Below are positions 5,358 to 38,226 of a stretch of 64,000 bases of DNA, in pieces (position 1 is the stretch's first letter; each line of letters begins with the position of its first letter). A program made the translations under genes and the position numbers. This stretch comes from Candidatus Woesearchaeota archaeon (GTDB lineage Archaea; Nanobdellota; Nanobdellia; Woesearchaeales; UBA9642): assembly GCA_003599145.1 (NCBI GenBank), contig QZIT01000005.1:512330-576329 (forward strand). The letters are read 5' to 3'. The notes below the pieces were generated by a model. That model was not told the origin of the DNA. It saw nothing but the letters and a program-made list of their open reading frames with translations, and searched no databases.

Positions 5358-5558
5358 ATGAAAACACTTACCTTAAAAGTAAAGGGAATGCATTGCAAAA
5401 GCTGTGAAATGCTAATAGCAGATACTGTTGGAGAAATTGAAGGCGTAAAAAAAGTGCAAAGCTCCTTTAAAGATGGAAAAGTAACGGTTATTGCAGAAGA
5501 CTCTACAAGTGAAAATGCTATAAAACAAGCAATAGAAAAAGAAGGTTACAAACTTTGA
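5358..5558 (+). CDS. copZ: heavy-metal-associated (HMA) copper chaperone, CopZ-like
   Basis: 66 aa; GMHCKSCE metal-binding CxxC in ferredoxin-like HMA fold; AGGTGA Shine-Dalgarno 8 nt upstream. Confidence 0.85.
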   Translation: MKTLTLKVKGMHCKSCEMLIADTVGEIEGVKKVQSSFKDGKVTVIAEDSTSENAIKQAIEKEGYKL

Positions 5559-6469
5559 AAACCACGATTTACGTTCCGGATATCGAATGTGAAAGCTGTT
5601 CTAAGTTAATCAGCAGAAAATTAAAGCATAAGGAAGGCATCAACCAGATTTCAATAAAGCCAGATAGTGTGGATATTGATTATGATGAAAGCAAAATAAA
5701 GCCAGAGCAGCTAGTGCAAACGATAAAAGATGCTGAGTTTAGAGCAGGGCTAGAGCCGTTTGAAAGAAAAACATTCAAAGAGCGATGGAGAGATTTTAAA
5801 GAAAATAAAAAAAAATATCATCTGGAATTAAAAGGAATAGAATATGCAGCATTCATCTTTTTAATACTCACTGCCTTGGAAGCAATTGCTTACTTTGGCT
5901 TTCTCAAAACACCCACGTTCTTAACCAACTATGGCTGGTGGTTTTTTTACCTCAATATTTCCATTACAGCCATAAGTTTTGGTTTATGGCACATTTTTGC
6001 GTATAAAACAAAAATTACCTGCATGGTAGGCATGATGATAGGAATGACTCTAGGCATGCAAACAGGCATGATGATAGGTGCTATTTTGGGAGCAACAAAC
6101 GGCTTCTTTATAGGCGCAATGACTGGCATGATTTTAGGGGTAACCGTTGGCATCATTGCGGGAAAATGCTGCGGCATTATGGGCATTATGGAAGGCATGA
6201 TGGCAGGCCTTATGGGCGGTACGATGGGCCCGATGATATCGCTCATGATGTTTTCAGACCACTTGCTCTGGTTTATGCCGGCATATATGATCATTAACCT
6301 GCTGATTATTGCTGGATTGTCATATATGATGTACGAAGAAGTGGTTGAGTATAAAGAAGTAAGAAAACAACCGCTTGACTTTTTAACCATTGCATCGCTT
6401 TGCATTATCGTTGCATTTGTATTAATTATGATTATATTATACGGGCCAAAGGCGGCATTTTTGAGGTGA
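5555..6469 (+). CDS. HMA domain fused to Met-rich polytopic membrane domain (candidate copper permease)
   Basis: 304 aa; N-terminal HMA with CESC; TTG start overlapping copZ stop (tTTGA); TM region with period-4 Met/Gly repeats GMMIGMTLGMQTGMMIGAILG...GIMGIMEGMMAGLMGGTMGPMISLMM plus a CC pair. Confidence 0.65.
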   Translation: MKTTIYVPDIECESCSKLISRKLKHKEGINQISIKPDSVDIDYDESKIKPEQLVQTIKDAEFRAGLEPFERKTFKERWRDFKENKKKYHLELKGIEYAAFIFLILTALEAIAYFGFLKTPTFLTNYGWWFFYLNISITAISFGLWHIFAYKTKITCMVGMMIGMTLGMQTGMMIGAILGATNGFFIGAMTGMILGVTVGIIAGKCCGIMGIMEGMMAGLMGGTMGPMISLMMFSDHLLWFMPAYMIINLLIIAGLSYMMYEEVVEYKEVRKQPLDFLTIASLCIIVAFVLIMIILYGPKAAFLR

Positions 6470-6473
6470 TACA

Positions 6474-6977
6474 ATGAAAGGAAAAAAAATGATTTTATTT
6501 GGAGCAATTGCTATAGTGCTTTTTGTATTGGCGTTTTCATTAAAAAGCTATGTTATTGCAACACCATATTCTGCATATGCTGAGAACACAGAAAATCTGC
6601 AAAACACCGTGAGCAATGGAGAAGTGCAGACAGTTAAGCTAAGCTTCGATAATTACGGTTACGTGATGGAGCCATCTACCTTGAAAAAAGGAATTCCTGT
6701 AAGAATGGAAGTCGATTTAAGCACCGTTACTGGATGCATGAGGGATGTTGTTATTTCTGCATTTAATGTGAGAAGATATGTAAGCTCCGGAAACAATATC
6801 ATAGAATTTACGCCTGATAAGACAGGAACATTCAACATCATGTGTTCCATGGGCATGGGACGAGGAAAGTTTACGGTTGCTGAAGCTGATGGAACAGCAT
6901 CAAGCTACATCGAACAGGCTCCTCTTGGAGGAAGCTGTGCTGCTGCTGGCGGTGGATGCGGATGCGGAGCAAGGTAA
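6474..6977 (+). CDS. secreted cupredoxin-like beta-sandwich protein with C-terminal Cys/Gly-rich tail
   Basis: 167 aa; signal/TM anchor; EPSTLKKGIPVRMEV...FTPDKTGTFNIMCSMGMGRGKFTV resembles cupredoxin strands and Cys/Met loop; tail [16 protein letters not shown]; GAGGTGAT SD upstream. Confidence 0.5.
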   Translation: MKGKKMILFGAIAIVLFVLAFSLKSYVIATPYSAYAENTENLQNTVSNGEVQTVKLSFDNYGYVMEPSTLKKGIPVRMEVDLSTVTGCMRDVVISAFNVRRYVSSGNNIIEFTPDKTGTFNIMCSMGMGRGKFTVAEADGTASSYIEQAPLGGSCAAAGGGCGCGAR

Positions 6978-7294
6978 AGTATTTTGTTATTTTGATTATT
7001 TTACTCACAGCACTCCAAGCCTGTGAAAATAACCTCGATGAAAAAACAGTGCAAAGAGTGGATGTATTGTATGAGCACACCGTCTTGATGAAACAGTTGG
7101 GAACACCAAAACAACTAGAACGAATAGGTTTAAATGCAGACTACATATTGGACAGTTCTGGATTGGCACCTGAAGACAAAATAAATGCACTAGAAAACGC
7201 GTATAATATGCCTTCAAGCGGAAACTATAAAGAAAGGATAATAAAATTAGAAGAAAAAATGAGCATCATGATGCAAAATTGGGGTGTAGAATGA
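6956..7294 (+). CDS. small lipoprotein (lipobox LQAC)
   Basis: 112 aa; hydrophobic signal ending in Cys; overlaps neighbours by 22 and 16 nt, consistent with operon. Confidence 0.45.
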
Positions 7295-9444
7295 AAAAGG
7301 AATTTGCAATAACAGGAATGCATTGCGCAAGCTGCTCAACATTAGTTTCTAGAGCTTTAGAAAAAACACCCGGAGTGCAAAGCGCAAATGTTAATTTGAC
7401 AACAGCAAAAGCAACAGTAGAGTATGATGAAAAAACAGTTTCTGAAAAAGAACTCATTGCAGCTGTTGAAAGAAAAGGGTATGGAGCGCTTCCTTATAGC
7501 AAAGAAGGCCATGAAAAAAAACAAAAAAGAGACTTGCAAAAATTAAAAACAAAATTTTTGATAAGCTTAACCTTTGCAATACCTGCATTTTTGATAGGTA
7601 TGGTGTTTATGTGGCTTGGAATTATGATCCCCTTTCAAGAGTATATTCTCTGGTTTTTGGCAACGCCTGTACAATTTTTTGTAGGCTGGGAATTTTATAA
7701 AGGAACATTCACGGCAATAAAAAACAAAAGTGCAAATATGGATTCCTTAATAGCCATAGGGACAACTGCTGCATACGCATTCAGCGTCTATGCTGTTCTG
7801 TTCAATCCTGAACTCGGACAGTATTTTGAAATATCTGCCATTTTAATTACGCTTGTATTGATGGGCAAGCTTTTGGAAGCAAACGCAAAAGGAAAAACAT
7901 CTGATGCTATAAAAAAGCTCATGGCATTGTCTCCCAAAACAGCAACCGTTATCAGAAAAGGAAAAGAAATAGTTATTCCTGCAGAGCAAGTTATTGTTGG
8001 CGATATTATTATTGTAAAACCAGGAGAAAAAATTCCTGTAGACGGCATTGTTGTCGAGGGAAATTCTGCTGTTGATGAAAGCATGATAACAGGGGAAAGC
8101 ATTCCTGTGGAAAAGAAAAAAGGAGATAAGATTATAGGCGCAACTGTGAACAAGCATGGAAGCTTTATGTTTAAAGCTACATCCGTAGGAGAACACACTG
8201 CGCTTGCACAGATTATTAAATTAATAGAAGATGCCCAAGGAAAAAAAGCACCCATACAAAGATTTGCAGACACTATTTCTGCTTATTTTGTTCCTATGGT
8301 TATAGGCATAGCAGTTATTGTTTTTTTTAGCTGGCTTGCTCTTGGAAAAGAATTTTCTTTTGCATTGATAACTGCAGTAGCTGTTTTAGTTATTGCATGC
8401 CCTTGTGCATTAGGATTAGCTACACCTACTGCCATCATGGTAGGCACAGGAAAAGGCGCTAAAAAAGGCATTCTCATTAAAGGCGGTGATGCTCTGGAAA
8501 CAGCGCATAAACTAAAATACATTATTTTTGACAAAACAGGAACCATCACGCACGGAAAGCCTGAAGTTACTGAAATTTTAGGAAGCAAAACATTGCAGAT
8601 AGCTGCATCTATAGAAAAAAATTCAGAGCATCCTCTCGCTGAAGCCATAGTAAAAAAAGCAATGGATGAAAAAGTAGTGCTTACCAAAGTAAAACAGTTC
8701 AAGGCAATTCCTGGTTATGGAGTGCAGGGAATGCTAGGAAAGCAGTATTTTCTAGGCAATCAAAAACTCATGCAGATGAAAAAAATCAGCATTGAAAAAT
8801 TTCAGAAAAATATTGATGAGCTTGAAGAGCAGGGAAAAACAGTCATGATTCTTGCTGATAGCAAAAATGTTTTAGGAATTATTGCTGTTGCAGACACCAT
8901 AAAAGAAACATCACGAGAAGCAATAAGAAGATTGCAGGAAATAGGCTTGCAGGTGTATATGATAACAGGCGACAATCAAAAAACAGCAGCGGCAATTGCA
9001 AAACAGGCAGGAATAAACAATGTTTTTGCAGAAGTTTTGCCTGAGGATAAGGCAAAGTATGTAAAACAACTGCAACAAAAAGGAAAAGTTGCCATGGTTG
9101 GAGATGGCATCAACGATGCTCCTGCTCTTGCCCAGGCAGATATAGGCATAGCCATGGGCTCTGGAACAGATGTTGCCATGGAATCAGGCAATATTGTTTT
9201 GATGAGGAATGATTTACTCGATGTTCCTCGTGCAATAACGTTAAGCAGGCAAACCATGAAAAAAATAAAACAGAATATGTTCTGGGCATTGTTTTACAAT
9301 GTGTTAGGCATACCTATTGCAGCAGGATTATTATATCCATTTACCGGTTGGCTATTGTCGCCTATTATTGCAGGAGGAGCAATGGCATTGAGCAGTGTAA
9401 GCGTTGTTTCAAATTCCCTGTTATTGCAGCATAAAAGATTATAA
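7279..9444 (+). CDS. copA: Cu+-exporting P1B-type ATPase
   Basis: 721 aa; N-terminal [14 protein letters not shown] motif in TM6, [15 protein letters not shown]; likely true start ATG 7291 (MKKEFAITG). Confidence 0.92.
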
Positions 9445-9483: not shown

Positions 9484-10023
9484 ATGAACCAAAAACAGAT
9501 AGGCATGATTGTTATTTTGCTTGGTATTCTCTTGGGCATTTTTGTATACGCTGCAAAAGTACGCTCTGACAACGCAGCAGAGGCATTGACAGCAGCAACA
9601 GGAAGCTGTTTTTTAGAAGATGGCACTTGCCTGCACGAATCAGGAAGCACCTTTTTTCTTTTAGGGGGTATCATTGCAGCGGCATTGCTGATTTTAGGAG
9701 TGTATCTGTTCTTTTTTGACAAAACTCAGACACTATTGGTAAAACAACATGCCATGGTATCGACTGCATTAAAAGAAGCGAAAAAACATGAAAAAGCAAA
9801 GGATGAATTTAAGGCATTTTTATCAGGATTTACAGACGAAGAACAAAAGATTATTTTAGCGATTCATGAACAGGAAGGCGTACAGCAGTCAACCTTGCGG
9901 TATAGATTGGGAATGTCAAAGGCAACGTTGTCTTTGTTACTGCAATCACTAGAGAAAAAGGACATCATTTCTAAAAAAGCAGAAGGAAAAACCAATAAAC
10001 TGTATTTAAGGAAGAAATTTTAG
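9484..10023 (+). CDS. membrane-tethered winged-helix transcriptional regulator with extracytoplasmic Cys-x6-Cys-x-His loop (candidate metal sensor)
   Basis: 179 aa; two TM helices flanking GSCFLEDGTCLHESGS; C-terminal MarR/TrmB-like wHTH (QQSTLRYRLGMSKATLSLLLQSLEKKDII). Confidence 0.55.
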   Translation: MNQKQIGMIVILLGILLGIFVYAAKVRSDNAAEALTAATGSCFLEDGTCLHESGSTFFLLGGIIAAALLILGVYLFFFDKTQTLLVKQHAMVSTALKEAKKHEKAKDEFKAFLSGFTDEEQKIILAIHEQEGVQQSTLRYRLGMSKATLSLLLQSLEKKDIISKKAEGKTNKLYLRKKF

Positions 10024-10973
10024 TCTGCAATGACATGCAATGCAGGAAATCCCGTATATCCAAAATATTCATAGTACCTTAAAACATCTTTGAATAATTT
10101 TGCAATTTTTTCCAACTCATCAAGCAAATGCACCAAATTTTCAACAATAATTTCTGTTTCAAAATCTGCTCCGCCTATGGAATCATTTATTTGATAAAAA
10201 TAGCGGTGATTTTTCAGATATTCAAAAAGCTCCTTGTTTCTTTTTGTAGAACGCAGATAAAAATCAACTCTATATCCCTGATAGCCTAATTTAGTAAGGT
10301 TCATATCTGTTTTATAGCCTACAATGACCTGTTCAACCTCTAATTTTTTTATTCTTTTTCTCACGGTTTCAACAGAAACACCGACTGCTTTTGCAACTTC
10401 ATGCAAGGGCTGCCGTACATCTTTTCCGTAAGCATGAATTATTTTTTCATCAATGTCGTCGTGGTGTATCTCCTGATTATCCCCAGAAGTTCTTTGAATT
10501 TTATAATTAAAATTATCGAGAAGAAACGTTTTATTGAAATTGTGGACAGGAGAGTAAATGGCAATTTTGTATTCTGCTATTTGTTCTTTGTAGAGTGCTT
10601 CTATCTGATCCCAAATAGGAGGAAATTCTTTCGTGTGCTTTATTCCTACAAAAAATGCCAAATCCCATTTTCCGTGCAATTTGGCAATAGTCCATATTTG
10701 TGGTATTTGCAAAAGATACGTGTAAAAATCATTTTTTTCTTTAAGCGTCATGTACTGCCATTTGATATACACTCTAAAGGTCATATAGCCAAATTTGGAC
10801 ATATCTGCTATTAAGTGCGTTTTTCTTAGAATATCCTGCTGCTGAAGTCTTTGAATTCTGTAAGACGTTGTTTCAGGGCTCTTGCCTATTCGCTTTGCTA
10901 GCTTATTCAAAGGTATGGCTGAATTCAATTCCAATTCTGTCAAAATCTTCTTATCTATCAAGTCTACAGACAT
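10020..10973 (-). CDS. tandem-duplicated Lrp/AsnC-family transcriptional regulator
   Basis: 317 aa; two HTH_AsnC-like segments (IDKKILTELELNSAIPLNKLAKRIGKSPETTSYRIQRLQQQDIL and IDEKIIHAYGKDVRQPLHEVAKAVGVSVETVRKRIKKLEVEQVI), each followed by a RAM-like domain. Confidence 0.7.
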   Translation of the reverse strand: MSVDLIDKKILTELELNSAIPLNKLAKRIGKSPETTSYRIQRLQQQDILRKTHLIADMSKFGYMTFRVYIKWQYMTLKEKNDFYTYLLQIPQIWTIAKLHGKWDLAFFVGIKHTKEFPPIWDQIEALYKEQIAEYKIAIYSPVHNFNKTFLLDNFNYKIQRTSGDNQEIHHDDIDEKIIHAYGKDVRQPLHEVAKAVGVSVETVRKRIKKLEVEQVIVGYKTDMNLTKLGYQGYRVDFYLRSTKRNKELFEYLKNHRYFYQINDSIGGADFETEIIVENLVHLLDELEKIAKLFKDVLRYYEYFGYTGFPALHVIAD

Positions 10974-11130
10974 AATACTAGAAATATACTAAGTTATTTA
11001 TTAAATTTTCTGTTTTTTTCTTAAATTTAGCTTTTTTTCTCTTAATATGTAATTTTAAAGTTCTTTATTTTAAAATATCCATAAATATAGCTAAAATTCT
11101 TGAAAAAACAAAATAAAACAATCAAAAGTT

Positions 11131-11179
11131 TAATATAGTAATAATCACAACTATATAGTAATAACAAAGAAGAGGTGAT
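11131..11179 (+). promoter_or_regulatory. duplicated TATA-like element (TAATATAGTAATAA / CTATATAGTAATAA) and GAGGTGAT SD
   Basis: direct 12-nt repeat ATATAGTAATAA at 11134 and 11154; SD 11172..11179. Confidence 0.45.
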
Positions 11180-11184
11180 ATCAA

Positions 11185-11472
11185 ATGAGCAAAACTCCAA
11201 TAAGCAAAACTCTCGAAGTAATGGTTTATAGTGGTGCGTCAGGCTTCTACGGAGCAGTGGCTGTAGGCGAGCTATTAAGCCACTATTTCCAAAAAGCAAC
11301 AAGTGTTTATGCAGAATTAGCAAAAGAACCCATAATTACAGAAAAAGTGTACCAAACAGCAATGGAAGCATCAAAAGTTGCTGCCGGAGACTACTATTTT
11401 GCTATTGCCACGGGAGCAGTGGCAGGACTATTTGCAGGATTAGCACTCTTGCGTGCACATTACAAAGACTAA
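11185..11472 (+). CDS. small hypothetical protein with hydrophobic Gly/Ala-rich N- and C-terminal segments
   Basis: 95 aa; preceded by GAGGTGAT SD and duplicated TATA-like element; paralogous N-terminus to 20265..20660. Confidence 0.45.
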   Translation: MSKTPISKTLEVMVYSGASGFYGAVAVGELLSHYFQKATSVYAELAKEPIITEKVYQTAMEASKVAAGDYYFAIATGAVAGLFAGLALLRAHYKD

Positions 11473-11501
11473 AAATAAATTTCAAAAAAGGGGGGAGAAA
11501 A

Positions 11502-12539
11502 ATGAGATACTCGAACAATCAAAAAGGCAAAGAAGCATATTTAGGATGGAAGGGAGCGGTTAGTTTCAACCACACGCCAAACAGCGTAATAACGTGTGGT
11601 GAAACACAAGAAGTTATCAATGAAGACAGAGAAGCAATTCATGCCAAGAGGCGCAAGCTGGAAGAAGGCGTAAGAAATGGAATCATTACGCATCAAGATC
11701 TAGAAGAGTTCATTGAGAAGAATAGCGGCTCGCTGGAAGCAGGCCTTGCCAGTACGGTGAGATACACTACTGCAACAGATTTTAAAGACATGGCCAGAGC
11801 AACAGAAATTGCGCTAGACCAGTATCATGGATTTCTTGGCTGTATAGGCGAGATCAGCGGCTTATCAGAAAGGCAAGGCTGGTACGCACAACTAGACTAT
11901 GCTGAGAACGCGCAAGGAAATTCATTGCGATATGCCGTAGTGAAAGAGGCTGTTGATTTTTCTGAGTCTGCAGGGTATGAAATGACAGCAGATATTGCGC
12001 ATGGTTTTAAAGATTATGCGGGGTCTGACATGAAAGCAACGTATGCAGTAGCATTTAAAGGAAAAGCTGGGCATGGCATGCAAGCAGAATACGCTGCAAA
12101 TTTTGGTGATCGTGCAGGACAAAACATGACGGTAAAAGTCGCCCAAGGATTTTCAGACATGGCAGGAAAAGAAATGATAGCAGAATACGCAACGCATTTT
12201 TTTGACCACGCAGGATTGGCAATGATTGCGGATACTGCAAACCGATTTCAAGACGATGCAGGAGCGCGCATGATTGCCAGAGTCGCAACTTCCTTCAGAG
12301 CGTATGCAGGACAGTACATGCAAGCATTTTCCTGTCAGGATTTTTATGAGCCTGCAGGACAGGGAAGAACATTGCCTACCGTAAAAAGCTTAAGACGAGA
12401 AGATTACTGGCTTGAACGTCTTAGAGAGGAAATCTTAAGACGAGAATACGAACGTTTAGAAGCGCCGGAAACACCATCTTCCATTAGCCAGCCTGAAAGT
12501 TCACAACGCCAACCAAAAAAATGGTGGCAGATTTTTTAA
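11502..12539 (+). CDS. hypothetical protein with eight tandem 16-aa repeats (AGxxMxAxYAxxFxDx)
   Basis: 345 aa; repeats AGYEMTADIAHGFKDY/AGSDMKATYAVAFKGK/AGHGMQAEYAANFGDR/AGQNMTVKVAQGFSDM/AGKEMIAEYATHFFDH/AGLAMIADTANRFQDD/AGARMIARVATSFRAY/AGQYMQAF...; SD GGGGGGAGAAAA upstream. Confidence 0.5.
   Translation: MRYSNNQKGKEAYLGWKGAVSFNHTPNSVITCGETQEVINEDREAIHAKRRKLEEGVRNGIITHQDLEEFIEKNSGSLEAGLASTVRYTTATDFKDMARATEIALDQYHGFLGCIGEISGLSERQGWYAQLDYAENAQGNSLRYAVVKEAVDFSESAGYEMTADIAHGFKDYAGSDMKATYAVAFKGKAGHGMQAEYAANFGDRAGQNMTVKVAQGFSDMAGKEMIAEYATHFFDHAGLAMIADTANRFQDDAGARMIARVATSFRAYAGQYMQAFSCQDFYEPAGQGRTLPTVKSLRREDYWLERLREEILRREYERLEAPETPSSISQPESSQRQPKKWWQIF
11970..12330 (+). repeat. eight in-frame ~48-nt repeats encoding the 16-aa units of CDS 11502..12539
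   Basis: periodicity visible at protein level; nucleotide copies are diverged. Confidence 0.5.
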
Positions 12540-12563
12540 TTTTTTCCTTTTCTTTGGAAAACA

Positions 12564-12580
12564 AAACTATATAAAATAAG
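12564..12580 (+). promoter_or_regulatory. TATA box AAAACTATATAAAATAA ~30 nt upstream of ATG 12597
   Basis: same AAAACTATATA core as the other two modules. Confidence 0.45.
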
Positions 12581-12596
12581 AAATATTCACAAAGGC

Positions 12597-12941
12597 ATGA
12601 TCATCCAGGACCTAACCATTATACAGATATTCATCATTGCCTTTGCAGTCTTTGCCTTAAGCAGGGTTTTCATTATGTATAAAGGCAAAAGAATAACCAT
12701 TTATGAACTGTTATTGTGGTGTGTTGTCTGGATTGCACTGATTGTTTTGTCAGTGATACCTGTTATCAGCGGTTTTCTTTCTAAATTAGTGGGCGTTGAG
12801 CGAGGAACAGATTTGATTGTCTATTTAAGCATCATTGCCCTATTCTATCTTGTTTACCGAATACACATGAAAGCAGAAAAGCTCGATGCTCAGATAACCA
12901 AACTCGTAAGACAAATAGCTATTGATAAAAAAAAGAAATAG
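12597..12941 (+). CDS. small 3-TM membrane protein (DUF2304-like, commonly adjacent to glycosyltransferases)
   Basis: 114 aa; three hydrophobic helices, K-rich C-terminus; TATA AAAACTATATAAAATAA ~30 nt upstream of ATG. Confidence 0.45.
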   Translation: MIIQDLTIIQIFIIAFAVFALSRVFIMYKGKRITIYELLLWCVVWIALIVLSVIPVISGFLSKLVGVERGTDLIVYLSIIALFYLVYRIHMKAEKLDAQITKLVRQIAIDKKKK

Positions 12942-12992
12942 GACATTCTTAAAAATCAAAAACTTTAAAAAAAAACAGTTCTGTACAGTAAA

Positions 12993-14201
12993 GTGATACC
13001 TAAACTTGAACAATACGCTACTTATGTCGGAAAGGCGCAGATAAGAAAGCTCAAAGAAGAAGCAAAGCCGCTCAAAGGCAGGCATATTTCTCACATCAAC
13101 TCTGTAGCCACAGGAGGAGGTGTAGCAGAGATTCTTAACTCTCTCGTGCTGTTGATGAATACTGCAGGCATAAAAACAGGATGGAGACTGTTCAAAGCGT
13201 CAGAATCATTTTTTCAGGTAACCAAAAAGTTTCACAATGCGCTTCAGGGAGAAAAAATAAACTTTTCTGCAAGGAAAAAAAGAATTTATCTCGAAGAAAT
13301 TGAAAAAAACAGCATCATGAACCATTTTGATGATCACGATCTTATCGTCGTTCATGATCCCCAGCCTCTTGCAATGATCAAGCATCTGAAAAAAAAGCAG
13401 ACATGGCTCTGGCGGTGCCACATAGATATTAAGCACGCTTACCCTCCTGTTTGGAACTTTATTTCCCGATATATAAGACAGTATGACGGCATGCTTATAT
13501 CCATGGAAAAATACAAGCACAGCAATATCAGCATACCCAACTTCATCGTGCAGCCATCTATTGACCCTTTATCGTTTAAGAATAGAGACTTATCACAGAA
13601 AGAGATTTCAAGACTGCTTTGGAAGCAAAACATCGACAGTGATAAGCCCATAGTGTGCATGATTAGCAGGTTTGACAAGTGGAAAAACCATGATGGAGTT
13701 CTCAAAACGTATGCAAAAGTCAGAAAAAAGGCAAAATGCCAGCTGGTGTTGATGGGCAGCAGCGCAAGTGACGACCCTGAATCCCTGCAAATCTTTGCAG
13801 ACGTCAATCACAAAGTGAAAAAAATGAAAGATGTAACCTTAATAACGCATCATGATGATTTTTTAGTAAACGCCCTGCAGAGAGAAGCAAAGCTGGTTTA
13901 TCAAATGTCCTTGCGCGAAGGCTTTGGGTTAACCGTATCAGAAGCGCTGTGGAAAAAGACGCCTGTTATTGCAACGAACAGAGGAGGAATCCCTCTGCAG
14001 GTTATTGACGGAAAGACAGGCTTCATAGTGCACAGCCCTGGTCAGGCAGCGGATGCAACCTTGAAGCTTCTCAAAAATCCAAAACTACAAGAAGACATGG
14101 GAGCTGCAGGCAGGGAACATGTCAAAAATAATTTCTTGATAACGAGACACTTACATGATTATTTAAGGATCTTTAACCAGTATCTTCCTGCTGAAAAATA
14201 G
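12993..14201 (+). CDS. treT: trehalose glycosyltransferring synthase-like GT4 glycosyltransferase
   Basis: 402 aa; N-terminal LKGRHISHINSVATGGGVAEILNSLV and TKKFHNALQG closely recall Thermococcus/Pyrococcus TreT; C-terminal GT4 E-x7-E region (REGFGLTVSEALWKKTPVIAT). Confidence 0.75.
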   Translation: MIPKLEQYATYVGKAQIRKLKEEAKPLKGRHISHINSVATGGGVAEILNSLVLLMNTAGIKTGWRLFKASESFFQVTKKFHNALQGEKINFSARKKRIYLEEIEKNSIMNHFDDHDLIVVHDPQPLAMIKHLKKKQTWLWRCHIDIKHAYPPVWNFISRYIRQYDGMLISMEKYKHSNISIPNFIVQPSIDPLSFKNRDLSQKEISRLLWKQNIDSDKPIVCMISRFDKWKNHDGVLKTYAKVRKKAKCQLVLMGSSASDDPESLQIFADVNHKVKKMKDVTLITHHDDFLVNALQREAKLVYQMSLREGFGLTVSEALWKKTPVIATNRGGIPLQVIDGKTGFIVHSPGQAADATLKLLKNPKLQEDMGAAGREHVKNNFLITRHLHDYLRIFNQYLPAEK

Positions 14202-14235
14202 CAATTTTTATAATAGGCGTTAGTATTCTGCCCTC

Positions 14236-15327
14236 ATGTTTCACCTAAGCCCTATTGTCGTATTCCCCCACAGCAATTTGTTATTGCATGATGCTGGATT
14301 AGAGGAAATGATAAAAAGAGGAAAAATAAAGATAGTTCCTAAACCAGGCGATGTTCAGCGGCAGCCTGCTTCTCTTGATATACGCATAGGCATGACCCGA
14401 GTCTATGATGCAGAAGCTCAAGCGCAAACAGCAAGGCATTGGAATAAACATCATTTGGCAAAGCCCTCTGTTCATTTTGCAAAAATATTTCCTGACGAAA
14501 AAGACATTCCTATAGATATACCTCCCAAAAGCTTTACAGAGCTATTTTTTCATGAGCAACCTTATTTTGAAAGCAGTCGTTTTGATTTGGGTGTTGATTT
14601 ACGGAGCAGCAGAGGAAGATTAGGATTAAGTCTTGCCTCTCAAGAAACAGAAAAAGGAAACCGCCAGTATGTTTCTTTCTGGAACATGAATCCAAACACC
14701 ATTAGACTCTATGGACAGGATCCATTTACACAATTATTTTTCTATCCCAAAAGAGGATATGCCAATGGTCATATTGTTCAGGACCCCGATGAAGCAAAAG
14801 AGCTTGTTCAAGGAATAGCAGATGCTCAGATGTATGGCGCCTATATTATGTTTTTTGTCGGCGATCATGTAAGAAAATTCAGAGAAGATATTGGAATAAT
14901 CGATACCAGAGAAAAATATGCTGATGAAGTTTTATATAGGCAATTTTCAGCAGAAGAAGGCTGTCCTGTATTTGCCGAAGACGCGGTGATCATGCAATTG
15001 CATCCAAGAGTAAAGCTTCCTCCCAATCTAGGAATAAGAATACTACATTGCCTACCCTATGCACAGATTTCTGGATTGACAAAGCCTTCTCCTGAATATT
15101 TTTTTCTAGAATCCCACGTGGCAAATGCGGGATGGGTTGATCCTGGCTATGAAGGATTTGTTACTGCACACCCTATACGGAGAAAGTTTCCTGCAGTGTA
15201 CACCAAGGGAGATTTTATTGCACTGGGTGCATTATATCACTATGACACTCCTGTCAAAAGGCCTTATGGAAGTTCTACATTAAATAGTCATTATCAAAAA
15301 TCAGACGGTGTTGGAGCGAGAAGCTAA
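14236..15327 (+). CDS. long-form dCTP deaminase/dUTPase-superfamily protein (DCD-like, ~360 aa)
   Basis: 363 aa; motifs GKIKIVP...QPASLDIRIG, RSSRGRLGLSL, later AGWVDPGYEG and FIALGALYHY; trimeric-dUTPase-fold motifs spread over two halves. Confidence 0.55.
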   Translation: MFHLSPIVVFPHSNLLLHDAGLEEMIKRGKIKIVPKPGDVQRQPASLDIRIGMTRVYDAEAQAQTARHWNKHHLAKPSVHFAKIFPDEKDIPIDIPPKSFTELFFHEQPYFESSRFDLGVDLRSSRGRLGLSLASQETEKGNRQYVSFWNMNPNTIRLYGQDPFTQLFFYPKRGYANGHIVQDPDEAKELVQGIADAQMYGAYIMFFVGDHVRKFREDIGIIDTREKYADEVLYRQFSAEEGCPVFAEDAVIMQLHPRVKLPPNLGIRILHCLPYAQISGLTKPSPEYFFLESHVANAGWVDPGYEGFVTAHPIRRKFPAVYTKGDFIALGALYHYDTPVKRPYGSSTLNSHYQKSDGVGARS

Positions 15328-16040
15328 TTTTTATCTATCATGTTCTTATAAAAAACAGAAAAAGCCTTTACAGCATCTTTTGAATTTATTTCCAAAAATA
15401 AATGCTGAGACTGCCATAGATCCAAGATGACACTTTGAGAGGTTACGATAATATTGATGCCTTCAGCATCGTCCAGAAAAGTTGCCTTCTTACAGATTTT
15501 TGCAAATTGACGTAATTCTGCAGTATTTGCAAGGATGAAGTGATGTTTTTTCTTCATGACTCCCTTCAGAAAATGTTCAAACCTGTAGCTCAAGCAGGTT
15601 TTTACGTTTAAATTGATAAAATAAATATAAAAAAATTTTGAGTTCGCCAACGCTCTAATAAAAAGTTCCTTGAGCGCTTCTTTACTCGTAAAAAAGTTGA
15701 TGTTTGGAAATCCTGGTTTTGTGGGATTATCATAGAGACTGTTAAAGTATCTTGAAAGTTGCTGCAAGTCATAAATCTTTGAAGGAAAAACAGTCTTTGG
15801 GTCTATGGCAACAAATTTTTGAGTAACTCCCTTGGTAGGCATGGGAGGAACTTTCATCACATAACCTTTTTTTCTTAGCCGAGTAATCACTTCATAGGTT
15901 TTGGATCTAGCAACTTTTGACAATCTGCTTAACTCAACTGCGCTTTGAGGTCCATACGTTATGAGAATCATATATGCCGTTATTTCCCACTCGGATAATC
16001 CAAAATTCCGCAGGATTGCCTCTGCATGCTCCCTTTCCAT
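15324..16040 (-). CDS. TrmB-family transcriptional regulator
   Basis: 238 aa; N-terminal wHTH FGLSEWEITAYMILITYGPQSAVELSRLSKVARSKTYEVITRLRKKGYV; 4-nt overlap with upstream-strand gene end. Confidence 0.75.
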   Translation of the reverse strand: MEREHAEAILRNFGLSEWEITAYMILITYGPQSAVELSRLSKVARSKTYEVITRLRKKGYVMKVPPMPTKGVTQKFVAIDPKTVFPSKIYDLQQLSRYFNSLYDNPTKPGFPNINFFTSKEALKELFIRALANSKFFYIYFINLNVKTCLSYRFEHFLKGVMKKKHHFILANTAELRQFAKICKKATFLDDAEGINIIVTSQSVILDLWQSQHLFLEINSKDAVKAFSVFYKNMIDKN

Positions 16041-16124
16041 AAACCCCGAAATGCAGGAAAGTATATAAGTGTTACTATTACGGTGACAACTTACCTATAC
16101 ATAGCGCTGGACACATCCAAGAGT

Positions 16125-16997
16125 ATGACCTGGAAAACCATTGCAAGGCCTGGATACTTTGGAAAAACACGCGACGAAAAACTCAAGATGTACGATGAGG
16201 AATTTGGATTAGGAAACTGGAGAATTGCATGGATGTGGAACGAAGCAAGCATAGACTATCACGTTGCCTGCACGCTTTATGAAGATGCCTATTATGCGGA
16301 TTCATTTCAAAGGCAAGCAATATGGATGGAACTCACTCATCAAGCAAAAGATGTTTTTGATATTCATGAGTCCGACATACAATCAACGTTAGATTACACA
16401 ATACAAACAGGAACTGCAACCCATCTTCAAGACATAGCGATACGAAGAGTTGTTCTCAGAAGAGGATGGACATTTTCAGGAAGAGAGTATGTTCAAATAA
16501 GAGGACATAAAACCTATTGGGGGTTGCAGTTAAGTCCTGGAAAAATCCCATTTCAAGTATCGCGAAACATACAAAAACCAAACCTGCAAGGCTGGTGGGA
16601 TGAAAACAGCGTTGAAGATTTTTACCAGAGCAATAAAGTATTGCAAGTAAGGGACTGGGATGATTTTCATCATGCAGCATACGAACTGACTGGCTATAGA
16701 CGACAACAGACTGATGCTGAAAAAAGAGCAAACGCACTTGAATCTGCCTTGGAAAAACAAATCAATCAGCTCTGTAAAAAAATGATTCCTGCCATCAACA
16801 AGAAATTAAAAGGAAAAGCTCCTCAAATCATTAGCTATCGCGTGCGTTTTCCCTTTATAGGAATTGAGCTTGATTGCTATGACGAAGATTTGATGGAGGA
16901 AGGAAGGATTATTCAAGAAATTGCACAAGCTGAACTAGATAGCCATGGCTTAAACATGATGAAAGTCTCTATTCCTGCAAAGTATTATGCAAAGTGA
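16125..16997 (+). CDS. hypothetical protein (Trp/Tyr-rich), divergent from TrmB gene
   Basis: ORF 16026..16997; first plausible Met at 16125 (MTWKTIARPGYFGK); no recognisable motif. Confidence 0.45.
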   Translation: MTWKTIARPGYFGKTRDEKLKMYDEEFGLGNWRIAWMWNEASIDYHVACTLYEDAYYADSFQRQAIWMELTHQAKDVFDIHESDIQSTLDYTIQTGTATHLQDIAIRRVVLRRGWTFSGREYVQIRGHKTYWGLQLSPGKIPFQVSRNIQKPNLQGWWDENSVEDFYQSNKVLQVRDWDDFHHAAYELTGYRRQQTDAEKRANALESALEKQINQLCKKMIPAINKKLKGKAPQIISYRVRFPFIGIELDCYDEDLMEEGRIIQEIAQAELDSHGLNMMKVSIPAKYYAK

Positions 16998-17007
16998 ACG
17001 AACCAAA

Positions 17008-17574
17008 TCACTCTTTCTGGTTCAACCAAATAGCTAAATTTCGATGTCCTGTGGAATATCTCGTGACGGTTATCGGATAATCAATTTCTTTACCATCTTC
17101 TCCAAAAATGTGCACACCCGAGTTAGAATCAATAGAGCTTATTACTCTTTCTTCTAATAGTTCTTCTTTGCTTGCCTTCACGAGTCTTTGAAATAAATTC
17201 TGTGCGAACTTCTCATCGAGAAATATTGACTCCTCGTTCATATCAGTCCAATCAATCATGTTTATGTGAGAATTCTTGTACAAGTCAGGGTTCATTAAGT
17301 ACTTTCCTCTTCCATCAGGAGAAAGATATACAGAAACATCATCCATGACACCATCTTCGTTTTTGTCATAGAATCTGTATTCATCTAAACAAAATTGTAC
17401 TCGAGCTCCTGGTTTCTGCTCCCACTCGTAACGTTCAAGTATTGTTGCTGTTGGTTTCACAGAATAATCAATAGGAACAAGCCCTGCATTCACATATTGC
17501 GCAAAGCTGAGAGTTGCGATGGCGCAGATAACTGCATTTTTGATGCTTTTTAATTGTATCATTTTTATCACCAA
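17008..17574 (-). CDS. secreted hypothetical protein (N-terminal signal peptide)
   Basis: 188 aa; hydrophobic leader AVICAIATLSFAQYVNA. Confidence 0.45.
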   Translation of the reverse strand: MVIKMIQLKSIKNAVICAIATLSFAQYVNAGLVPIDYSVKPTATILERYEWEQKPGARVQFCLDEYRFYDKNEDGVMDDVSVYLSPDGRGKYLMNPDLYKNSHINMIDWTDMNEESIFLDEKFAQNLFQRLVKASKEELLEERVISSIDSNSGVHIFGEDGKEIDYPITVTRYSTGHRNLAIWLNQKE

Positions 17575-17667
17575 ATAGTAAATAGTAGTTTAATATTATA
17601 AACTTTTGGAGTTAAATTTTGTCTTTTTCATCAATAAATTTAAATATATTGACATTATTGTAATATT

Positions 17668-18642
17668 ATGCCTCTTGACTTACTTGACAGAAAGCTTTTG
17701 TATGAACTTGACTCAAATAGCAGAAAGCCAATCAACCAAATTGCCAAGAAACTGAGGATAAATCGGACAGTCGCAGCATATAGGATAGATAGACTAAAAA
17801 AAGAAGGAATCATCAAGGGAACGTACACGCAAATCAATAATTTCTCACTCAAATATTACAGCTTCAGGATGTTCATCAAACTTGGCAATTTTACAGAAGA
17901 TAAGGAAAGCTCGCTCATCAACAACCTCGTAAAAGAAAAAAAATTGTTATGGCTTGCACGAGTGTTAGGAAAGTGGGACATTGATCTTATCTACATGACA
18001 AAAAGCATTTTTGAATTTGATACTTTTCAAAAGAATTTGTTGCTCAAATATAACGACATCATTGAAGAATATCAAACTGCACTCTTAACAAAAATAAATG
18101 ATTATCCGAAAGATTATTTGATTAACAAAGAACGCACACCTTTGAGCTTGAAGAAATCAATTAAGGAATCTTCATTTGAGCCAGACGGACTACATGAAAA
18201 GATTCTATTCTATCTCTCAGAAAATGCAAGCATGAATATCATTCATCTTGGGCAGAAAGTCGGAGCAAGCACAAATACTGTTAAGAAAAAGATGAAGGAA
18301 TTAATTCGTAACAAGATAATACTAGCATTTCGCCTTTTTATAGACACCAATAAGCTAGGTTATCAGTATTACAAACTCCACCTCACTTTGAGACATTATC
18401 GAGAAAAAGATTTGTATGAATTAACATCGTTTTTGGAATCAAAAAACTTCATGATAAGCACAGATCATTATCTTGGAGGGGAACATTTCGAGATAGAACT
18501 CCATATCGCAACAGAAAAGGAATATATAGACTTCATCTCTGAATTAATGAAAAGATATGGAAAGATAATCAAAGACCATTACGTAATAAAGTTTTACAAA
18601 GAACTGACCTATCGATATCTTCCTGTTATCGATACTGCTTAG
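17668..18642 (+). CDS. tandem-duplicated Lrp/AsnC-family transcriptional regulator (paralog of 10020..10973)
   Basis: 324 aa; LDRKLLYELDSNSRKPINQIAKKLRINRTVAAYRIDRLKKEGII HTH; second HTH/RAM module in C-terminal half. Confidence 0.65.
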   Translation: MPLDLLDRKLLYELDSNSRKPINQIAKKLRINRTVAAYRIDRLKKEGIIKGTYTQINNFSLKYYSFRMFIKLGNFTEDKESSLINNLVKEKKLLWLARVLGKWDIDLIYMTKSIFEFDTFQKNLLLKYNDIIEEYQTALLTKINDYPKDYLINKERTPLSLKKSIKESSFEPDGLHEKILFYLSENASMNIIHLGQKVGASTNTVKKKMKELIRNKIILAFRLFIDTNKLGYQYYKLHLTLRHYREKDLYELTSFLESKNFMISTDHYLGGEHFEIELHIATEKEYIDFISELMKRYGKIIKDHYVIKFYKELTYRYLPVIDTA

Positions 18643-19376
18643 TCATTCTCAACTCTAGGCGCTAGAATAAAGCTTAGTTGAACTCTGTCAACAACAAAAT
18701 AATCCAATCGCAGAGGATAATCCTTGCTGAAATGGATTCTTACCGTATCAGAAATTTTAGAACCCTGAATCATTTTTTTTAGATATTCAATCGAATACTT
18801 GCTTTTTACTTTTTCCTTTACTGCAATTTTGGTTTCTGTACTAGGAACAAGTTCAATGGTTGCCTTATTCAAATCTCCTGCAGCAGAAATAGTGAATTTT
18901 TTATCATCGCCTATAAAGCTGACGCTTTCTCCCACAACATCAACATCGTCAATAGCATCATTTAATGAAGATGAGGGCATAGTGATGTCAGCTTTAAACT
19001 GCAAATCAGGGACTTTCTGGTCTTTTTCTTCCAAATCAATAATGGGAAGGTAAAAGGTTCGTACAGAATTGCTTTTCAGAGTTATTTTAAACTGGCTGTC
19101 CTCAACTTCTAAACTTAGCGTATCATTTGCCTTTATTCTTCTTAAAACCTGCTTTAAATTGCTTAAGTTGATGGCAATCACTTCTGTTTCATCAACAGCA
19201 TACTCAGTAAAGGTGGTATTGAACAATTTGAAGATAATCATGGCCACATTAGCAGGATCCATGGCAACTAATTCAACATACTCTTTGGTTATGATAAATC
19301 TTGATTCTGTAACTAAGTCTGAAATGATGCTGACTGGTTCCTTAAAGAATTTTGTATCAACAAGCGAAAGTTTCAT
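18639..19376 (-). CDS. pcn: DNA polymerase sliding clamp PCNA
   Basis: 245 aa from MKLSLVDTKFFKEPVSIISDLVTE; PCNA two-domain pattern and C-terminal acidic tail. Confidence 0.88.
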   Translation of the reverse strand: MKLSLVDTKFFKEPVSIISDLVTESRFIITKEYVELVAMDPANVAMIIFKLFNTTFTEYAVDETEVIAINLSNLKQVLRRIKANDTLSLEVEDSQFKITLKSNSVRTFYLPIIDLEEKDQKVPDLQFKADITMPSSSLNDAIDDVDVVGESVSFIGDDKKFTISAAGDLNKATIELVPSTETKIAVKEKVKSKYSIEYLKKMIQGSKISDTVRIHFSKDYPLRLDYFVVDRVQLSFILAPRVEND

Positions 19377-19408
19377 GTTACCCCCTTCAAGCATGAATGT
19401 TCAAAGAT

Positions 19409-20158
19409 TTATAAAAGTTTTGATTTAAACTTAGCAGGGGTTGCCTTATTCCAATACACATTGAAAATAAGCTTCATGGCTTCTGCAAAGTCTTTGTTTT
19501 TTATGATAAATCCAATCAAATCTGTTTTATGGGTAAACATCGATACTTTATCTCCATAAATGAAAATCATAACAGGAAAATCCTTCATGGCATCATGAAA
19601 TCTTAACTCGCTTACTTTTTGATACTCCTTAGTGTGCAGAATAGGCTCATCAGTGTAATCATACACCATTTTTGCAGGTATCTGTTTTTCTATCCTTACT
19701 TTTCTCACATAATTAGGAAGGTGTTTCAGCACTTTTAACGAATTCTGATAACCTCCAAAATAGTACACCTGCTGTTTTACTCTCACTAAATCTGAAAGAA
19801 TAGTATGAACGCCTTTAAATCCTTCATACATGACGATGCTTGAAGATGATTTTACTGATTTTGCCAAAGTATTGAGCTCAGGAAGAGCCTCTGCAATAAT
19901 CTGCTGTTTTTCAACAAGCTGGTCTCTCAGGGTTTCAGGCTCTGTTGTAGAATAATAGGTAACTTTTTCTTTGATGATGCTGGCAACCAATCCTTTATTC
20001 TTCAAGTATTCAAGAGTATGATAAACTGTCGAACGAGGATAGCTTAATCGCTTGGAAATATCGTGCAAAGTTACACTCCCTAAAGGAAGCAATTCCAAAT
20101 AGACTGCAATTTCTTTTTCGTTAAGGCCAAAGGCTTCAAGAGCATAGCGAATATCCAT
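19409..20158 (-). CDS. TrmB-family transcriptional regulator
   Basis: 249 aa; EAFGLNEKEIAVYLELLPLGSVTLHDISKRLSYPRSTVYHTLEYLKNKGLV wHTH; TATA GTTTATAAAC 21-30 nt upstream. Confidence 0.75.
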   Translation of the reverse strand: MDIRYALEAFGLNEKEIAVYLELLPLGSVTLHDISKRLSYPRSTVYHTLEYLKNKGLVASIIKEKVTYYSTTEPETLRDQLVEKQQIIAEALPELNTLAKSVKSSSSIVMYEGFKGVHTILSDLVRVKQQVYYFGGYQNSLKVLKHLPNYVRKVRIEKQIPAKMVYDYTDEPILHTKEYQKVSELRFHDAMKDFPVMIFIYGDKVSMFTHKTDLIGFIIKNKDFAEAMKLIFNVYWNKATPAKFKSKLL

Positions 20159-20210: not shown

Positions 20211-20259
20211 AAAACTATATATATTTTAACCACTATTAAATAATAACAAAAGAGGTGAT
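20211..20259 (+). promoter_or_regulatory. TATA element AAAACTATATATATTTT plus 5'UTR with GAGGTGAT Shine-Dalgarno
   Basis: read directly; near-identical module at 11131..11179. Confidence 0.5.
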
Positions 20260-20264
20260 ACACA

Positions 20265-20660
20265 ATGAAAAACATAAAAAACAAGGTGAAAACAGGCATA
20301 GTATATGTATTATCCGCATTAGCAATAGGAGCATCTGCGTATCATGCAGGAAAAACAGTGCAAAAACAAGAAATAGCAGACAGACTTCATGAGGCATCAA
20401 GACAGGAATTGAATTGCGTAAGAAAAGAAGGACCTTATGCATTTATAGAAAGCTTTATCATATTGTCTGATCCTCAGTATGACACCCTTCCAAGATTGCC
20501 CTCAAGCCTTAAAGCATTAAACCTGCAGAACATCCCTACAGATATTGTTGAGACACTTGAAAGCGGAAAAAGCATTCCGGAAGGCGTTTATGCAACAAAG
20601 GAAGCTGGATACATTCAACAGGCGGCAAACTTAGAATTGCTTGCAAGAAACCTAGAATAA
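20265..20660 (+). CDS. small hypothetical protein, N-terminal paralog of 11185..11472
   Basis: 131 aa; same upstream module (AAAACTATATA...AATAACAAAAGAGGTGATACACA-ATG); hydrophobic N-terminal segment. Confidence 0.45.
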   Translation: MKNIKNKVKTGIVYVLSALAIGASAYHAGKTVQKQEIADRLHEASRQELNCVRKEGPYAFIESFIILSDPQYDTLPRLPSSLKALNLQNIPTDIVETLESGKSIPEGVYATKEAGYIQQAANLELLARNLE

Positions 20661-21397: not shown

Positions 21398-22705
21398 TTA
21401 AGGAATCTTTACTCGTTCATTATTGCCTAAAATATACACATCGCTTTCCTTATAGCCTATTTCCAATGCAAGCTGTTTTAATGCAAGCAATTTGGGAAGC
21501 TCTGCATGGGCAGGAATAATTTTTTCAGGTTTTACCAATTGCAATAAGTCCCTTAAATCTTCCCTTGAACCATGGCCGCTGACATGAATATCTTTAAAGA
21601 TTCTGACCTTTCTTTTTCTCAATTCTTCTTCCAAAGACTCTCTGTTTTTGATACTGATGGGTGTTGGAATAATCTTGCAGGAAAAGATGACAACATCATC
21701 TGGTTTAAAGTTAAAAAATTTGAGCATTTTTGATAGCGTTGCTTTAGGCTCTCCCTGATGTCCTGTAACGACAAAGAGGTAATCTTGAGGGCGTTTTACG
21801 GTTTTAATGAACTTCTGTATTTTTTCTCCATATTTTACCATTTCAACTTCCTTGCTGAATTTGACCAATCCAACTTTTTCTGCAGCTTCAACATATTTTG
21901 ACAGAGACCTGCCTAAAAAAACAATTTTCCTGTTCAGTTGATTGCCAAAATCGATGATGGATTTCAATCGTTCAATATGAGAGGAAAAAGTGGTAACAAC
22001 AACGGCGTTGTTTTTTGCATTGGTTGAAATAAAAACATCTCGTAACATTTCTTTTGCAACTCGTTCACTGGGAGTTTTCATGGCTGCATCAGCGTATAAA
22101 GAATCAATAACCATGATTCTTGGCTTTAATGAACGCAATTTGTTAAATGATGGTGTTTTTCCAAGCACAGGAAACAAGTCTAACTTGAAATCGTTTGCAT
22201 AAAGCACCGTGCCGTATTTTGTATAAATGGCTATCAAGGCTGTTTGTGGTGTTGAATGCGTCATGCTGATTAATTCTACCGTAATGTTTTGAGACAGTTT
22301 GAAAGGCGTATCTAGCTTCTCTGTTTTTAACTGATTTCGCATGTAGGTTTTTTTATCATCCAGCATTGCTCTCAATACTTCAATAGTAAACGGAGAACCG
22401 TGAATGTCTGCCTTGAACTTATTAGCTAGAAAGGGAACTGCTCCTATATGGTCTAAATGAGCATGCCCTAAAATGATGCCTACAACCTTATCTTTCCAGT
22501 CTCCCATGACAAAAACATCAGGAGCTGCGTTATGCTCTATTAATTTTTTCCCTGAAATCTCAACAACATCCTCATCTTGGGTATAGGCAACATATTCTTC
22601 CATTTTCAATCCTAAATCCAGAATAACAACTTCATTATCCACTCTGACTGCAGTGCAGTTCCTTCCAACTTCCTTAAAACCGCCAAGGGTTAAAACTTCA
22701 ATCAT
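21398..22705 (-). CDS. rnj: archaeal RNase J (beta-CASP metallo-beta-lactamase ribonuclease)
   Basis: 435 aa; HAHLDHIGAVP (HxHxDH), beta-CASP region, C-terminal H motif HVSGHGS. Confidence 0.85.
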   Translation of the reverse strand: MIEVLTLGGFKEVGRNCTAVRVDNEVVILDLGLKMEEYVAYTQDEDVVEISGKKLIEHNAAPDVFVMGDWKDKVVGIILGHAHLDHIGAVPFLANKFKADIHGSPFTIEVLRAMLDDKKTYMRNQLKTEKLDTPFKLSQNITVELISMTHSTPQTALIAIYTKYGTVLYANDFKLDLFPVLGKTPSFNKLRSLKPRIMVIDSLYADAAMKTPSERVAKEMLRDVFISTNAKNNAVVVTTFSSHIERLKSIIDFGNQLNRKIVFLGRSLSKYVEAAEKVGLVKFSKEVEMVKYGEKIQKFIKTVKRPQDYLFVVTGHQGEPKATLSKMLKFFNFKPDDVVIFSCKIIPTPISIKNRESLEEELRKRKVRIFKDIHVSGHGSREDLRDLLQLVKPEKIIPAHAELPKLLALKQLALEIGYKESDVYILGNNERVKIP

Positions 22706-24041: not shown

Positions 24042-24098
24042 CTTGTTTATTATGACAGAATATCCTTATAAAAGTATTGTTTTAACCAGAAAATAGGT

Positions 24099-24199
24099 GC
24101 GGGGGAGAGGATTTGAACCCCTGAACCCACTAAGGGACTAGATTCCTCATCAGTGGAACTTGAGTCTAGCGCATTTGACCAGACTTTGCATACCCCCGC
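24099..24199 (-). tRNA. tRNA-Leu (anticodon CAA) with 15-nt intron between positions 37/38
   Basis: Reverse complement folds as GCGGGGG acceptor stem/CCCCCGC, 3-bp D-stem with UGG D-loop, anticodon stem CUAGA/UCUAG, loop CUCAAG + intron UUCCACUGAUGAGGA (plus coords 24144..24158), long variable stem-loop CCCUUAGUGGG, T-loop GGGGUUCAAAUCCUC; mature length 86 nt, no encoded CCA. Confidence 0.8.
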
Positions 24200-37245: not shown

Positions 37246-38226
37246 ATGAAAACACAATACTTATTGCAAAGGTTTTTTCAAGAAAAGAAACCTGGTGAAA
37301 TAAGAGATTCCTATAAAAAAGTAGAGGTTTCTCCAAGAGCAGGAGAAAATACCATCAGGAGAGAAGATATCGTTGATGCTGTAAGGCATCTTTGGAAAGA
37401 CCAATACATACGTTTAACGGCTCCTGCAGATATACTTCCTGAAGATGTCCCTAATTTTAAAAAAAGAGGCTCTTTTCTCAATTTGCGAGTTCCCACAACA
37501 AGAAGGGAATTGCTGGAAGATAGAGTAACCATTCAAGAAAGAGCTGCAGAACGTTTAGAATCCATTGACGAACAAGCCCACCCTGGTGCATATTACTGGG
37601 GCATCAGAGCAAGACATAGAAAATTATGGTCTTTAGTAACGATTATCGATGGATTGACTGCGTATGCACTCATCAGAAGCAAGGCAGTTATTGGGCAGGC
37701 TGTCCCAGAAGTTGTGGCTCTAAGAGACTACGGCGATGATATTGCGTTTCATACAGAATCATTTACTGATTTGGGAGTAACCTATAAAGGGTATATTAAA
37801 CATCTTGCAATGGACCAAAAAACAATGCACGCAGACGCCGTTGAAATATCGGGAAGATGCAGTTGCGACGATGATTTATGGAGCACCATGGCAAATCCGA
37901 GAATTGTTGATGATTACCGATTCTGCAAGCATGAAGTTGCCGCTTTACTGCTGGCTGCAGATATGAAACGAAAAATGAAAAAGTCTATTGCATTAAACCC
38001 TTTGCCGTTTACACCAACAGTTGCATTAGTGCAGGACAGGGAAAAAACTAAAAGGATACTGACTAAAGAAGGCAAATTGCTCTCGGGCATAAGGCAGGAA
38101 GTATTGCTTTGGGATTTAGTAAGAATAAACGAGGGAAGAAACCTGCATTATGATACAAACTTCACCAGCGCAAGAGAGGTTGCAGGGTATATTGCAATGA
38201 AAGCTTATTCCTCTTCTCCAGAATAA
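37246..38226 (+). CDS. SWIM zinc-finger protein
   Basis: CSCDDDLWSTMANPRIVDDYRFCKHEVAALLLA = CxCx(n)CxH SWIM motif; AGGTGA SD before ATG 37246 (ORF opens 37216). Confidence 0.55.
   Translation: MKTQYLLQRFFQEKKPGEIRDSYKKVEVSPRAGENTIRREDIVDAVRHLWKDQYIRLTAPADILPEDVPNFKKRGSFLNLRVPTTRRELLEDRVTIQERAAERLESIDEQAHPGAYYWGIRARHRKLWSLVTIIDGLTAYALIRSKAVIGQAVPEVVALRDYGDDIAFHTESFTDLGVTYKGYIKHLAMDQKTMHADAVEISGRCSCDDDLWSTMANPRIVDDYRFCKHEVAALLLAADMKRKMKKSIALNPLPFTPTVALVQDREKTKRILTKEGKLLSGIRQEVLLWDLVRINEGRNLHYDTNFTSAREVAGYIAMKAYSSSPE

Follow-up and report, generated by a model that had tools for sequence, protein, structure and literature searches.

Two small orphan genes of a Candidatus Woesearchaeota archaeon probably have ordinary leadered gene starts and not copies of one expression cassette

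The window analyzed here is a 64-kb stretch of DNA from a MAG of Candidatus Woesearchaeota. Its two strongest Shine-Dalgarno (SD) sites are both located ahead of genes encoding small hydrophobic proteins, namely, orphan proteins of 95 and 131 amino acids (aa). The regions upstream of these two genes are similar and had been regarded, in a sequence-only reading, as one expression module present in two copies. We consider it likely that they are instead two independent cases of the ordinary leadered gene start of this archaeon and not a copied cassette; the upstream regions would then be alike because the same generic signals recur in AT-rich DNA.

The window has a GC content of 38% and contains, among others, genes for PCNA, RNase J, a histone, and regulators of the TrmB and Lrp types. 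Upstream regions were listed for 74 ORFs, and a de novo motif search was performed on 42 with a real intergenic region. A single dominant motif was found upstream of these 42 genes, AAAnTTTATAAA, in which an A-rich BRE-like element precedes a TATA box. The leaderless BRE/TATA promoters of Haloferax volcanii and Saccharolobus solfataricus follow the same grammar. In about half of the promoters (~22 genes) the motif starts at -32 to -37 from the ATG, as exemplified by the genes at 21398-22705 (-) and 53817-54773 (+); together with the usual archaeal distance from TATA box to transcription start site (TSS), this position implies leaderless mRNAs. Across archaea, the leaderless fraction varies from 1.4-72% (PMC8116511). 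In the remaining genes, e.g., 38205-38471 (-) and 40187-40396 (+), the motif is located at -41 to -65, and a purine-rich SD-like site was present in every one inspected, including the genes of the 95-aa and the 131-aa protein.

The 3′ end of archaeal 16S rRNA is conserved and reads ...GAUCACCUCCU; SD sequences are complementary to it. The diversity of SD sequences has reportedly been reviewed by Wen et al. in 2020 (cited in PMC8116511). The 16S rRNA 3′ end of the organism itself lies outside the window, and the conserved archaeal GAUCACCUCCU, which we take to be its anti-SD, was used for all calculations; the SD sites of the window tile to AGGAGGTGATC, in agreement with this assumption. A duplex with the anti-SD of -8 kcal/mol or stronger was formed by 16 of the 74 genes as compared to 3% of random positions. 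SD-led genes encode smaller proteins (median 121 aa versus 286 aa, p = 0.018), among them the histone, two PRC-barrel proteins, an HMA chaperone, and small hydrophobic proteins. The duplex energies form a continuous series of -13.1, -13.1, -12.9, -12.8, -12.2 kcal/mol and on, with the 95-aa and the 131-aa genes in the two top positions. Had the proposed module turned up ahead of most genes, it would have been a generic consensus; taken literally this is not the case, as most genes are leaderless and without an SD site, but in spirit it is, as the module corresponds to the consensus of the leadered class.

Both genes carry the SD site AAGAGGTGATA, which starts exactly 15 nt ahead of the ATG and extends over 11170..11180 (+) for the 95-aa gene and 20250..20260 (+) for the 131-aa gene. 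Its core GAGGTGAT (11172-11179 and 20252-20259, respectively) is separated from the ATG by 5 nt in either case and is perfectly complementary, over 8 nt, to AUCACCUC inside the assumed anti-SD. The bases that flank the core within AAGAGGTGATA are also identical in both leaders (AA before, A after). At -13.1 kcal/mol, the duplexes of both genes are the strongest among the 74 genes. With an 8-nt perfect complement placed 5 nt from the ATG and a duplex of this strength, the two genes would share the mechanism of SD-led initiation of archaea; as compared to archaeal SD-led genes in general, they seem to have very short leaders in which the SD site is near the predicted 5′ end.

The core GAGGTGAT occurs at three sites only on both strands of the window (128 kb), each 3-5 nt ahead of the ATG of a real ORF. 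The third site, which served as a control, is located at 6463-6470 (+), 3 nt ahead of a gene encoding a cupredoxin-like protein of 167 aa (6474-6977). The leader of this unrelated gene has the 11-mer GAGGTGATACA in common with the leader of the 131-aa gene, and this 11-mer is as long as the one common to the 95-aa and 131-aa genes. Since the anti-SD duplexes of these two genes are the two strongest in the window, their leaders should drive efficient translation. High-level expression, as had been proposed earlier, is supported to this extent, with the expression level itself being a prediction from the sequence.

The strings on which the proposed module was based are all present, namely, AACTATATA at 11149 and 20213, AATAACAAA at 11160 and 20242, and AAGAGGTGATA at 11170 and 20250, and the designation of the region as a promoter followed by a short 5′ leader agrees with the BRE/TATA consensus and the SD site found there. 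For the 95-aa gene, the best match to the promoter position weight matrix (PWM) that is placed suitably for an SD-containing leader is the distal BRE/TATA-like element AAGTTTAATATA at 11126..11137 (+); it starts at -59 with a predicted TSS near -24, yet the match is weak (3.6 bits), which speaks against an ordinary gene start. The proximal AACTATATA at 11149..11157 (+) extends from -36 to -28, a position typical of leaderless promoters, and its TATATA box scores below 2 bits. For the 131-aa gene, the BRE/TATA box AAACTATATATA at 20212..20223 (+) starts at -53 with a predicted TSS near -18 and reaches 7.9 bits, with ~0.06% of the window positions exceeding 7.5 bits; a proximal TATA-like element, ACCACTATTAAA, follows at 20229..20240 (+), starting at -36 with a score of 4.2 bits. 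As compared to the promoter type of H. volcanii and S. solfataricus, both genes belong to the minority leadered class with the best TATA motif 53-59 nt upstream. Unlike leaderless promoters, this arrangement leaves space for a leader of ~18-25 nt.

The element AACTATATA is found at a further position, 12565, upstream of a third gene (12597). It fits the window-wide BRE/TATA consensus AAAnTTTATAAA and counts among the generic functional elements. Pairing of its occurrence at -36 in the first copy with that at -52 in the second, as had been done before, requires an offset of 16 nt; a colinear alignment pairs the distal TATA-like boxes with each other and the proximal boxes with each other instead. 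The duplication of a 12-mer in the first copy was found as described: ATATAGTAATAA forms a 12-nt exact direct repeat at 11133-11144 and 11153-11164 (+) with a period of 20 nt, and this repeat gives rise to two TATA-like boxes. A repeat of this length was matched in 1.25% of dinucleotide shuffles of its intergenic region, and nine other short-range exact repeats of at least 11 nt exist within the window. The duplication is real but unremarkable.

The A-rich AATAACAAA, located at 11160..11168 (+) in the first copy, about the predicted TSS or 5′ end of the leader, and at 20242..20250 (+) in the second, is the only common block without a functional explanation. Exact matches of at least 9 nt outside the SD zone, with positions differing by no more than 8 nt, were detected in 45 of 2701 upstream pairs (~2%), and chance should produce one or two such matches among the ~120 pairs formed by SD-led genes. 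All blocks common to the two regions are accounted for, either as generic functional elements or by the base rate of matches in A-rich upstream DNA. RNA folding of the leaders revealed no structure significant as compared to shuffled sequences (z of -0.5 to +0.8), and Rfam gave no match in either leader; a riboswitch or another structured RNA was rejected in view of these folding scores close to 0 and the missing Rfam match.

The 70-nt upstream regions were compared by all-against-all local alignment, and the 95-aa and 131-aa genes ranked first of the 2701 pairs with a score of 37, followed by pairs with scores of 32, 32, 32, and 31 (mean 15, sd 3.3). That this is still the single best pair counts against two ordinary gene starts, as do the equal SD spacing, the identical SD flanks, the 9-mer, and the colinear distal and proximal TATA-like boxes. 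The same observations favor a true homology, in which a promoter and leader segment of ~35-57 nt was duplicated or transferred by recombination and the coding regions are unrelated or have diverged: the colinear alignment comprises ~41 identical columns of 58 and includes one exact block of 11 nt and one of 9 nt, and the distance from SD to ATG is the same. However, a Gumbel estimate based on the above mean and sd predicts ~0.3 pairs with a score of at least 37 among the 2701; as the pair had moreover been picked as the best-looking one, its top rank is not significant. Furthermore, the likeness is confined to functional elements; it stops at the ATG and fades beyond about -57, and no terminal repeats common to both upstream regions were found. 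The SD-centered 11-mer of the unrelated cupredoxin-like gene and the base rate of 9-mer matches given above argue in the same direction. We regard a small true homology of the regulatory region as rather unlikely; it is nevertheless the strongest competitor of the ordinary leadered start.

Additional copies would be expected of a duplicated or mobile cassette. No copies of the module beyond the two were detected in the 64-kb window, which is part of a 576-kb contig; together with the end of the similarity at the ATG and the generic nature of the common blocks, this speaks against the cassette proposed by the sequence-only reading. The pattern AATAACAA-N(1-3)-AGAGGTGATA was then searched in three public collections, none of which includes the source MAG. 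It was found at 109 places in species-representative genomes, within ~2-fold of the ~50 estimated for uniform composition, at 45 places in metagenome contigs, where the pattern was one base longer, and at 17 places in viral contigs. An ATG follows 3-9 nt downstream in 76 of these 171 places, and the matches are singletons spread across bacteria and archaea that are unrelated to each other. This spread and the downstream ATGs indicate that the motif recurs by convergence as the context of ribosome-binding sites. Neither a Woesearchaeota family nor any other multi-copy family of the motif was present in the three collections, the source MAG not being among them, which argues against true homology as well. 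The viral contig IMGVR_UViG_2595698880_000001 contains the motif twice (L160 13124-13142 and L162 457-475). The two occurrences agree fully in the 45 nt upstream and in the sequence that follows, which points to a repeated segment of this contig, e.g., a terminal repeat.

One genome illustrates what a duplication of this kind looks like. In the Candidatus Methanomethylicia MAG JZ-1_201705_bins_15, the A-rich block AATAACAAAATAGAGGTGATA with an ATG behind it is present in two copies located on different scaffolds (L003 5500-5800 and L005 6460-6760, both on the minus strand). These copies are ~90% identical over ~95 nt, comprising the upstream region, the leader, and the first five codons, and then diverge; by this measure, the pair is a truly duplicated module of promoter, 5′UTR, and N-terminus. 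Such duplication thus exists, which lends some credit to a homologous origin of the Woesearchaeota pair as well. The Woesearchaeota pair differs, however, in that only the TATA element, the 9-mer, and the SD site are alike and the similarity does not continue into the ORF but ends at the ATG.

The two ORFs were found with the sizes reported before, the 95-aa ORF C4573_04610 at 11185-11472 (+) and the 131-aa ORF C4573_04665 at 20265-20660 (+); their products are 100% identical to the hypothetical proteins of the MAG that bear these tags. Both ORFs show an in-frame codon advantage of 0.28 nats per codon, comparable to that of well-supported genes such as those of the cupredoxin-like protein (0.30) and the histone (0.21), and the ORFs antisense to the pair have no in-frame codon advantage. 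The strong SD sites together with the in-frame codon bias support calling both orphan ORFs real genes, which they probably are. Hydropathy analysis revealed a clear hydrophobic helix at the C-terminus of the 95-aa protein and a hydrophobic segment at the N-terminus of the 131-aa protein. The 95-aa protein was predicted to be all-helical by AlphaFold2 from its single sequence with moderate confidence (pLDDT 69); the model of the 131-aa protein obtained in the same way (pLDDT 39) is unusable for a fold comparison with it. Small, possibly membrane proteins, as they were called in the sequence-only reading, appears to be a reasonable label for both products in view of their hydrophobic segments.

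The genes had also been described as paralogous. BLASTP gave no alignment between the 95-aa and 131-aa proteins at E ≤ 100, and Smith-Waterman alignment over the full length gave a score of 28 as compared to 26.8 ± 4.7 for shuffled sequences (p = 0.36). A common N-terminal pattern had been taken as a sign of kinship; alignment of the N-terminal 35 aa reached a score of 25 (p = 0.07), which is no better than for unrelated hydrophobic N-termini of the window, where scores up to 34 were obtained. At the level of their sequences, the two proteins are not detectably related, and paralogy is not supported. Only self-matches were obtained for both proteins among 5.8 billion clustered proteins, and an exhaustive phmmer search of the 131-aa protein against 1.84 billion representatives also yielded the self-match only.

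A third orphan ORF of 345 aa (11502..12539, +) follows the 95-aa gene at a distance of 29 nt, and the two probably form an operon. The 345-aa protein contains eight consecutive 16-residue repeats, AGxxMxAxxAxxFxDx, at aa 157-284, and among 5.8 billion proteins it matched itself only. Pfam, NCBIfam, PHROGs, and PDB contained nothing credible for the 95-aa, 131-aa, and 345-aa orphans; the sole family-library match among the orphans, to one PHROG (E = 0.0046), concerned a hydrophobic N-terminus and was disregarded.

The 95-aa gene is divergent from a gene for a tandem Lrp/AsnC-type regulator (10020..10973, -), which has a promoter of the leaderless type, and the 131-aa gene is divergent from a gene for a TrmB-family regulator (19409..20158, -). 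The stretch from 9484 to 20158 is dense in regulators interleaved with orphans of 95, 345, 323, 184, and 131 aa. It comprises a membrane-anchored MarR/DUF7343 protein (9484-10023), a second tandem Lrp/AsnC paralogue (17668-18642) which is 26% identical to the one at 10020-10973, TrmB-like genes at 15324-16040 and 19409-20158, and the further orphans of 323 aa (16026-16997) and 184 aa (17008-17562). A segmental duplication of a regulator together with its target was rejected: one of the flanking regulators is of the Lrp/AsnC family and the other of the TrmB family, no significant similarity was found between the two TrmB-like genes, and the Lrp paralogues share only the identity mentioned above. 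A compositional island was rejected as well, with the GC content being flat at 33-41% across 5-25 kb.

Two other features of the window were noted. What looks like a copper-handling cluster extends over 5358-9444 (+) with an HMA-domain chaperone (5358-5558, +), the 167-aa cupredoxin-like protein (6474-6977, +), which starts with a hydrophobic segment, and a P-type ATPase (7279-9444, +); the genes of the chaperone and the cupredoxin-like protein, the small ones of this cluster, are SD-led. A tRNA of 102 nt at 24098-24199 (-) was matched by Rfam (39 bits) and missed by ARAGORN; like many tRNAs of archaea, it probably has an intron.

The divergent regulator genes raise the question of a common transcription factor, possibly of the Lrp/AsnC or TrmB type, which would co-regulate both genes by means of ACTAT(A/T) boxes with a period of 18-20 nt and AATAACAAA at the predicted TSS; alternatively, tandem promoters may give rise to leadered and leaderless transcripts. 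The period of 20 nt of the 12-mer repeat, about two helical turns, and the second TATA-like box at about -36 in both genes, a typical leaderless position, are in favor of this reading. However, the neighboring regulators are of different families, the 12-mer repeat stands out only nominally as judged from the shuffles and the nine similar repeats of the window, the proximal boxes score poorly in both genes (<2 and 4.2 bits), and AT-rich intergenic DNA readily yields such patterns. Homologs that could lend comparative support were not found, the genes all being orphans. Taken together, we consider co-regulation or tandem promoters improbable. Less probable still is a small regulon that combines both, with the A-rich AATAACAAA and the regularly spaced ACTAT(A/T) boxes acting as operators for a common regulator and the tandem TATA boxes giving SD-dependent leadered as well as leaderless mRNAs; if it were true, the mode of translation initiation would be switched within one gene in a DPANN archaeon.

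The ordinary leadered gene start would account for both genes as follows. We infer from the sequences that a BRE/TATA promoter ~50-60 nt upstream of the ATG would direct transcription to start ~18-25 nt upstream of the ATG, a distance deduced from the position of the TATA element. The transcript would begin with a short, unstructured, A-rich leader which presents the near-perfect SD GAGGTGAT 5 nt ahead of the ATG. Pairing of GAGGTGAT with the 3′ end of 16S rRNA would then lead to efficient translation, and the product would be a small, lineage-specific, and probably membrane-associated protein.

The finding itself matters little: a textbook archaeal promoter with an SD leader was seen twice, and gene starts of this kind are already known. 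A modestly useful by-product is the distinction of two classes of gene start in the window, which helps to annotate the genomes of this uncultivated Woesearchaeota lineage.
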